Source: Escherichia coli
GTDB lineage: Bacteria; Pseudomonadota; Gammaproteobacteria; Enterobacterales; Enterobacteriaceae
Length of the DNA stretch: 933 nucleotides
Strand: one strand, 5' to 3'
NCBI RefSeq assembly: GCF_003334335.1
Contig: NZ_QOWQ01000137.1
The position numbers were made by a program, and so were the translations under genes. This document shows, in pieces, positions 1 through 933 of this stretch; position 1 is the first letter of the stretch, and every line of letters begins with the position of its first letter. The notes under the pieces are model-generated. The model did not search any database. It worked only from the letters and a program-made list of their open reading frames with translations, and was not told the DNA's origin.

Positions 1-933
1 AAAGTGATCCGCACAGAACGGGTAAAAAAAGCCTGTACAAAATGTGACTGCATCGTTGAAGCACCGGCACCATCCCGTCCGATAGAGCGTGGTATCGCGG
101 GCCCGGGGTTACTTGCCCGCGTGTTAACGGGAAAATACTGCGAACATCTGCCACTGTATCGTCAGAGTGAAATCTTTGCCCGCCAGGGTGTCGAACTGAG
201 CCGTGCCTTACTCTCCAACTGGGTTGATGCGTGCTGCCAGTTAATGACTCCGCTGAATGATGCCCTGTACAGTTATGTGATGAACACCCGCAAGGTTCAC
301 ACTGATGACACACCAGTAAAAGTACTGGCACCGGGCAGGAAGAAGGCGAAAACAGGATATATCTGGACGTATGTCCGGGATGACCGAAATGCCGGTTCGC
401 CAGAACCTCCGGCGGTCTGGTTCGCCTACTCACCGGACCATCAGGGTAAACATCCGGAGCAACACCTTCGTCCCTTCCGGGGTATCCTGCAGGCAGATGC
501 GTTCGCAGGTTACGATCGGCTGTTCAGTGCCGAACGTAAAAGCGGCGCGTTGACGGAAGCAGGATGCTGGGCTCATGCACGGCGCAAAATCCACGATGTA
601 TATATCAGTACCAAAAGCGCGACGGCGGAAGAAGCACTGAAACTAATCGGTGAACTGTACGCCATTGAGCACGAAATACGCGGGTTGCCGGTGTCTGAAC
701 GCCTGGCGGTCAGGCAAATGCAGAGTAAACCGCTACTGACTTCCCTGTATAAGCTGATGCAGGAGAAAGAACACACGTTATCGAAAAAATGCCGTCTGAG
801 AGATGCGTTCCGGTATATCAGGAAGCACTGGATTGCGTTGTGCAACTTCTGTGATGACGGTCTGGCGGAGGCGGACAATAACACAGCGGAAAGAGCGCTT
901 CGTGCAGTCTGTCTCGGAAAGAAAAATTACGTG
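1..933 (+). CDS. tnpC: IS66-family transposase (ORF3/TnpC), internal fragment; both the N-terminus and C-terminus lie outside the window
   Basis: Seen in sequence: frame 1 is open across all 311 codons with no stop. Translation begins KVIRTERVKKACTKCDCIVEAPAPSRPIERGIAGPGLLARVLTGKYCEHLPLYRQSEIFARQGVELSRALLSNWV and continues through ...HTDDTPVKVLAPGRKKAKTGYIWTYVRDDRNAGSPEPPAVWFAYSPDHQGKHPEQHLRPFRGILQADAFAGYDRLF...EAGCWAHARRKIHDV...IGELYAIEHEIRG...LAEADNNTAERALRAVCLGKKNY. Established knowledge: these blocks (LPLYRQ HTH, YVRDDR, VWFAYSPDxxGxHP, ILQADAYxGY, CWAHARRK, GELYAIEAEIRG, IDNNxAEN-ALR, GRKNW) are the conserved signature of IS66-family transposases such as those of IS66 and ISEc8. No start codon with a ribosome-binding site and no stop codon is present, so the gene is truncated by the window on both sides. 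The exact IS name is not determinable without a database search. Confidence 0.93.
34..51 (+). other. C-terminal half of the IS66 transposase zinc-ribbon motif (C-x2-C-x-C)
   Basis: Seen in sequence: codons 12-17 encode C-T-K-C-D-C (tgt aca aaa tgt gac tgc). Established knowledge: IS66-family transposases carry an N-proximal zinc-finger domain built from paired CxxC motifs; the first pair would lie upstream of the window. Confidence 0.6.
91..225 (+). other. Helix-turn-helix DNA-binding region of the IS66 transposase (contains the LPLYRQ motif)
   Basis: Seen in sequence: codons 31-75 encode GIAGPGLLARVLTGKYCEHLPLYRQSEIFARQGVELSRALLSNWV. Established knowledge: the 'HLPLYRQ...G(V/I)ELSR(A/S)TL' block is the conserved HTH region of IS66-family transposases. 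Domain boundaries are approximate. Confidence 0.7.
298..900 (+). other. DDE-type catalytic core of the IS66 transposase, including the CWAH motif
   Basis: Seen in sequence: D102/D103 (nt 304-309, HTDDTPV), D166 (nt 496-498, ILQADAFAGY), CWAH at codons 189-192 (nt 565-576, followed by ARRK), and E297 (nt 889-891, within ADNNTAERALR at nt 874-894). All are in frame and intact. Established knowledge: IS66-family transposases have a DDE-like core with a conserved CwAH-rR motif between the second D and the E. Which of D102/D103 is catalytic cannot be decided by eye. Confidence 0.7.

Follow-up and report, generated by a model that had tools for sequence, protein, structure and literature searches.

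Insertion sequences of the IS679/IS66 group are the canonical three-ORF elements of the IS66 family and have reportedly been described as such in earlier work, and members of the ISBst12 group of the family, unlike the three-gene IS66 group, contain a single ORF. IS679 is said to need all three of its ORFs and to be accompanied by an 8-bp duplication. The Escherichia coli element analysed here shares with the IS679/IS66 group the gene order tnpA-tnpB-tnpC, the ATGA overlap of tnpA and tnpB, an overall size near 2.5 kb, inverted repeats that start with GTAAGCG and measure about 20-25 bp, and an 8-bp target duplication, as well as a TnpC protein in which a coiled coil and a zinc finger are combined with a DDE domain containing CWAH and with IS66_C; it shows no structural difference from the group and is a separate named member. 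An 8-bp direct repeat is found on the flanks of both the published ISEc43 insertion in SGI1-B-Ec1 (PMC6531882) and the copy of the element that is identical to our sequence. The transposition mechanisms of IS66 elements were called ‘insufficiently characterized’ in a 2026 paper (PMC12898284), and β-clamp-binding motifs were reported in IS66 TnpB and TnpC (PMC3971601). No mechanistic study of IS66 transposition was found in the literature searched, and circle formation by IS66 is unmentioned in the IEE review checked for it. For the IS256-family transposase of ISCth4, the DDE residues are D175, D241 and E348, an α-helical insertion domain carries a C/DxxH motif (C262/H265) important for catalysis, and transposition proceeds by copy-out/paste-in with 8-bp duplications (PMC7780238).

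The window, i.e. the whole stretch of DNA analysed here, comprises 933 nucleotides. We conclude with high confidence that it represents the middle part (58%) of tnpC, which encodes the DDE transposase of a 2,532-bp IS66-family insertion sequence of the ISEc43 type. A preliminary description had placed the window inside an IS66-family transposase gene, and two independent profile libraries agree on this assignment. The window translation matches the NCBIfam model NF033517 ‘IS66 family transposase’ (E 1.5e-103, 346.8 bits at a curated cutoff of 180 bits, residues 1-310) and the Pfam model PF03050 DDE_Tnp_IS66 (E 3.3e-92, residues 30-310). The full TnpC protein reaches 443.2 bits with NF033517 (cutoff 180) and E 2e-94 with PF03050 and additionally matches LZ_Tnp_IS66, zf-IS66 and DDE_Tnp_IS66_C. 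Pfam and NCBIfam return IS66 models only, the top match being to this family and to no other. The features found in the window are the following:

Window 1-933, plus strand: internal segment of tnpC, codons 167-477 of 537, corresponding to bases 1387-2319 of the 2,532-bp element
Window 1-48, plus strand: C-terminal part of the zf-IS66 zinc finger, its final 16 residues, with the second CxxC pair (C178 at nucleotides 34-36, C181 at nucleotides 43-45)
Window 88-930, plus strand: DDE_Tnp_IS66 catalytic domain (RNase H-like), the final approximately 9 residues of which lie past the window
Window 304-306, plus strand: D268, candidate for the first catalytic Asp (HTDDTP), present in 76/76 sequences
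Window 496-498, plus strand: D332, candidate for the second catalytic Asp (LQADAF), D in 75/76 sequences
Window 538, plus strand: private base A where the eight other copies examined have G, resulting in E346K in TnpC
Window 565-855, plus strand: all-α-helical insertion domain between the second Asp and the Glu, opening with CWAH (565-576)
Window 565-567 and 574-576, plus strand: C355 and H358 of CWAH, both in 76/76 sequences
Window 889-891, plus strand: E463, candidate for the catalytic Glu (NNTAERALR), E in 74/76 sequences, on helix 460-466 of the structure model

The open frame +1 is real and well past chance expectation. It extends over 311 residues of window positions 1-933 with zero stops in the six-frame translation, the remaining five frames having 4-18 stops each. 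The probability of 311 open codons, calculated from the base composition of the window, is 6.7e-7, and none of 5000 mononucleotide shuffles contained an open frame of at least 310 codons in any frame, the longest being 271, which bears out the earlier claim of an uninterrupted reading frame. No listed ORF of the window exceeds 103 aa on either strand, because the real frame runs past both window ends. The window is furthermore gap-free and colinear with annotated full-length tnpC genes, in agreement with the claimed absence of a frameshift. Among antisense ORFs, the longest spans window 573-884 (minus strand, 103 aa); NCBIfam gave nothing for it at E up to 1, and we regard it as having arisen by chance within a coding region. 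Rfam families were not found at E up to 1 in the whole element and its flanks.

Analysis of the full-length protein by Pfam revealed the following domain architecture, of which the window covers the central part and no part of the N-terminal coiled-coil region:

TnpC 60-130: LZ_Tnp_IS66, outside the window
TnpC 138-182: zf-IS66
TnpC 196-486: DDE_Tnp_IS66
TnpC 494-530: DDE_Tnp_IS66_C, outside the window

To describe residue conservation, we used an alignment of 76 sequences, i.e. TnpC and 75 diverse full-length family representatives (32-47% identity); a HMMER scan of 1.84 billion representatives had yielded 42,333 relatives with E values of 0.001 or lower. R220, D268, C355, H358 and R404 are invariant, and the nearly invariant columns include D332, E463, R360, R361 and the cysteines C141, C144, C178 and C181. 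Between 167 and 477, the window protein agrees with the consensus at all invariant and nearly invariant columns, except for a conservative exchange of R by K at position 473. D268, D332 and E463 probably form the metal-binding catalytic triad, with D268 as the likely first Asp, judged from its conservation and its place on the first core strand of the structure model. The zinc-finger cysteine columns are kept in 70-74 of the 76 sequences, and the first CxxC pair (C141, C144) is encoded upstream of the window. The statement of the preliminary description that all catalytic and DNA-binding motifs are preserved therefore stands for the conserved residues at 167-477 and has to be narrowed for the zinc finger, of which only the latter half is contained in the window.

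Comparison by megablast of the window with 5,426 complete E. coli genomes identified the window or relatives of it, at any level of identity, in 3,045 of them. Identity of at least 99% is found in 330 E. coli records and in 84 plasmids. Among the matches listed, the sole 100% match is on the chromosome of strain S1-CAM-02-A (NZ_CP145707.1, 313164-314096, minus strand; this locus is referred to as L001). The best plasmid match is 99.5% and the plasmid collection contains no 100% match, so that a plasmid origin of the exact window copy is unsupported. The name ISEc43 derives from NCBI PGAP labels of near-identical copies, which would apply to the window’s element as well: near-identical TnpC proteins are labelled ‘IS66-like element ISEc43 family transposase’, proteins named in this way differ from the TnpC of the window by 1-7 residues, and one of these, WP_032221816.1, is TnpC with one residue changed (E346 instead of K346). 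From the PGAP-labelled copies the window element differs by the private G-to-A exchange at window base 538. Some elements so labelled (L008 and L009) are mosaics whose left 408 bp differ, and the reference form of ISEc43 may be either. Isoforms of a named element are by convention at least 95% identical in nucleotide sequence; the related E. coli IS66 members ISEc23 and IS682 show approximately 92.5% and 87% nucleotide identity over the element, respectively.

In L001, the window corresponds to positions 6001-6933 (933/933 identical) within the annotated tnpC, and this copy reveals the anatomy of the complete element in the order IRL, tnpA, tnpB, a 30-bp gap, tnpC and IRR:

L001 4700-5125: tnpA, 141 aa, NF047595 with 84 bits (cutoff 74)
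L001 5122-5472: tnpB, 116 aa, NF033819 with 120 bits (cutoff 50)
L001 5503-7116: tnpC, 537 aa

The genes tnpA and tnpB overlap by ATGA, and the start of tnpC lies 30 bp beyond the stop of tnpB. TnpA shows a weak match to an IS3-type N-terminal HTH and is an HTH-type accessory protein. An inverted-repeat search returned arms at 4614-4638 and 7123-7147, and at base level the element extends from 4615 to 7146, i.e. over 2,532 bp. The two ends, GTAAGCGTAAACTGACCGCCGTAT (4615-4638) and GTAAGCGTCAACGGAGCACCGTAT (7123-7146), are imperfect inverted repeats of approximately 24 bp, starting with GTAAGCG and matching at 19 of 24 positions, and a perfect 8-bp duplication, CAAAATGG, is present on both sides. 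L001 hence shows the features of the IS66 family, i.e. the profile match, the DDE residues with CwAH, three genes, repeats starting with GTAAGCG, a duplication of 8 bp and a size of roughly 2.5 kb. From the window, the preliminary description had foreseen a tnpC of 500-540 aa preceded by tnpA and tnpB, which in L001 are both intact, and terminal inverted repeats with flanking 8-bp direct repeats, all of which are present; neither a stop or frameshift in the flanking parts of the ORF nor a loss of the inverted repeats is seen in this copy. The upstream distance had been estimated roughly right at about 1.5 kb (1,386 bp to the left end in L001) and the downstream distance too large at about 0.7 kb (213 bp to the right end).

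The surroundings of the element in L001 are those of a virulence island, with a truncated pseudogene of a SigA/Sat-type autotransporter (serine protease) on one side and an intact iha on the other (L001 1-1461 and 7721-9811). The insertion and the 3′ end of iha, a siderophore receptor/adhesin gene encoded on the opposite strand, are 574 bp apart. Older IS66-family debris is found nearby at L001 4476-4503 and 7353-7503: an IRR-like end (...GGTTCTGGCGAGCCGCTTAC) is located 112 bp upstream of ISEc43, and a frameshifted IS66 C-terminal remnant is located downstream. Even in K-12 strains, element bases 2374-2532 are represented by a remnant of 159 bp with 96.9% identity.

The duplication CAAAATGG flanks the element in L001, L002, L004 and L005, and the insertion at iha together with the same duplication is common to strains from Switzerland, Germany, Mexico and Norway. 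Adjoining iha, inspection of the individual bases in strain 118UI confirmed an empty site with only one CAAAATGG; by megablast, 768 genomes share this empty-site configuration, and 23 genomes, strain 55989 among them, have the occupied right junction. Other sites are used by closely related copies. In the chromosome of S88 (L003), a copy with 99.57% identity occupies another site and has TTATAGAC on either side, and plasmid pYD786-1 (L009) carries an isoform with ACATAGGG on either side. The comparison of loci indicates that the element type has transposed repeatedly in the past, because there are independent sites, empty as well as occupied versions of one site and a published ISEc43 insertion. 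The insertion at the iha site itself appears to be inherited with the island and not to be a fresh event, because it is common to 23 genomes.

Several close relatives are damaged, rearranged or mosaic. In L002 (NZ_CP042892.1), which is one base off the window, tnpA is split by a nested 2,757-bp IS66-family element; therefore, one IS66 element has disabled another at the same iha-island site. The nested element (L002 2228-4984) has inverted repeats starting with GTAAGCGC and a set of tnpA, tnpB and tnpC genes of its own, encoded on the opposite strand, and it is flanked by a separate perfect 8-bp duplication, TCTTTATC. L006 (NZ_CP065613.1) is two bases off the window and is missing the first three bases of IRL (GTA), which is consistent with an IS110-type insertion at or into the tip of the inverted repeat. 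A frameshifted IS110-like ISSso6 element (L006 about 727-2117) abuts the left end of ISEc43 in this record, and the left 8-bp flank is replaced (AAAGTCAT instead of CAAAATGG). L007 (pO86A1, NC_008460.1, 2115-4646) is a complete ISEc43-type copy with open ORFs and differing flanks, GAAAGAGT and GAATGCCT, which implies that copies have rearranged with one another or that adjacent DNA has been deleted; its neighbours are a group II intron reverse transcriptase on one side and the aat dispersin-export genes on the other. L008 (NZ_CP024248.1) and L009 (pYD786-1), both at 2107-4646, are isoforms of which the left 408 bp, containing IRL and the 5′ part of tnpA, are unalignable with the window’s element; identity is approximately 96% in the remainder and 99.4% in the window region, which suggests that members of the IS66 family have recombined. 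A perfect duplication, ACATAGGG, is present in L009 and absent from L008. As the disabled or rearranged elements L002, L006 and L007 contain copies with 99.8-99.9% identity over the window, such a sequence alone does not guarantee an intact element.

For the copy to which the window belongs, our comparison supports that it is structurally intact and potentially mobile, with the state of tnpA and tnpB, of the element ends and of the remaining part of tnpC being deduced from the single 100%-identical public copy. Alternatively, tnpC might be intact within an element that is disabled elsewhere, by a split tnpA, a truncated repeat or a lost flank, resulting in a stranded transposase gene, as is observed for copies with 99.5-99.9% identity to the window (L002, L006, L007 and L008). 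We consider this improbable, given that A538 is shared, among the nine copies compared, only by the window and L001, which is complete with a perfect duplication and is the only exact match among those listed from the 5,426 genomes; the intact reading is much likelier because this private base ties the window to the complete L001. We also considered domestication, in which case the open frame would be a host gene derived from a transposase and residing off any mobile element, since the window shows a lone intact transposase segment. Nothing specific favours it, and we regard its probability as negligible in view of an identical copy with inverted repeats, duplication, polymorphic empty site and three-gene layout, and of copies at varying sites on many chromosomes and conjugative plasmids.

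Intactness does not equal activity, and the step from the one to the other, taken when the preliminary description spoke of an active insertion sequence, is unsupported for this copy; past mobility of the element type is suggested by evidence that is comparative only, i.e. at least three independent sites and 23 occupied compared to 768 empty iha sites. A complete element could be functionally silent as a fixed passenger of the iha pathogenicity island, which we consider possible but rather doubtful. The silence could be accounted for by weak expression, host control or the E346K exchange. The same insertion with the same 8-bp duplication in 23 genomes of diverse origin points to inheritance and not to repeated transposition, and the source genome appears to carry a single full copy of the element. 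A scan of the element for promoters and terminators gave sites no commoner than in shuffles, and on the plus strand the region upstream of tnpA yielded neither a consensus σ70 promoter nor another promoter-like site. Compared to the tnpC of S88 (L003) and pO86A1 (L007), nonsynonymous exceed synonymous exchanges by 7 to 1, which could reflect relaxed constraint on recently diverged copies, these counts being too small to interpret. Against silence, all three ORFs are open with all conserved residues kept, near-identical elements occupy at least three independent sites, and a recent insertion is on record in the literature (PMC6531882). Moreover, synonymous exchanges are in excess over nonsynonymous ones in comparison with more divergent tnpC copies (28 to 14 and 25 to 11), consistent with selection for function. 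E346K is located in a variable, mostly gapped loop; it is probably neutral, because column 346 is a gap in 61 of the 76 family members and variable in the others, and an inactivation of the enzyme by this exchange is unlikely.

Turning from the copy to its enzyme, a search of the PDB by sequence with TnpC and TnpB gave no match at E up to 1, and following this null result a fold search was performed with an AlphaFold2 model of TnpC based on the 76-sequence alignment. The model is confident (mean pLDDT 92.4, pTM 0.78). It predicts a long N-terminal helix (3-98), followed by a β-rich zinc-finger region (129-186) and a mixed α/β core with D268 on its first strand. A run of five helices (356-370, 373-392, 397-423, 431-441 and 443-451) forms the insertion domain; this run (356-451) starts at CWAH, and E463 is placed on a later helix. 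The closest solved fold is the transposase of the IS256-family element ISCth4 (PDB 6XG8/6XGX/6XGW), in which the C/DxxH motif (C262/H265) of the insertion domain is the equivalent of CWAH in TnpC. Sequence identity of ISCth4/IS256 (Mutator-like) transposases to TnpC is only 13-16%, IS256 elements have a single ORF and lack TnpA and TnpB whereas the element described here has three ORFs, the IS256 inverted repeats are different with a TGTAAA subterminal motif, and TnpC has in addition a long N-terminal coiled coil, a zinc finger and an IS66_C tail. With Pfam and NCBIfam returning IS66 models only, no PDB match by sequence and three ORFs present, we do not assign the element to the IS256 family; the similarity is structural only and is a resemblance in working, not family membership.

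We propose a model according to which the N-terminal coiled-coil and zinc-finger region of TnpC would recognise the inverted repeats, the RNase H-like DDE site (D268, D332, E463) would cut the ends of the element and join them to the target with an 8-bp stagger, and the α-helical insertion domain bearing CWAH would assist the DDE site. TnpA and TnpB would be required as accessory proteins in the ISEc43-type element, because all three ORFs are said to be needed in IS679. A copy-out/paste-in pathway via a circular intermediate is plausible for IS66, because the closest solved structure is that of an IS256-family transposase using copy-out/paste-in.

As a summary, the finding is the correct recognition of a well-known and very common insertion sequence that is already known, and its importance beyond annotation is slight: the region is to be labelled as an IS66-family insertion sequence of the ISEc43 type. 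For E. coli genomics it means that a repeat of this type is present in most genomes, and such elements break short-read assemblies. They also mark variable regions of pathogenicity islands and of virulence and resistance plasmids, a local example of which is provided by the adjoining iha and the sat/sigA-type autotransporter pseudogene. The insertion at the iha site is usable as an epidemiological marker, as only 23 complete genomes have it. A mildly interesting by-product is the link in fold between TnpC and the ISCth4 transposase, which suggests a simple circle-junction experiment and offers a testable handle on the uncharacterised transposition pathway of the IS66 family.
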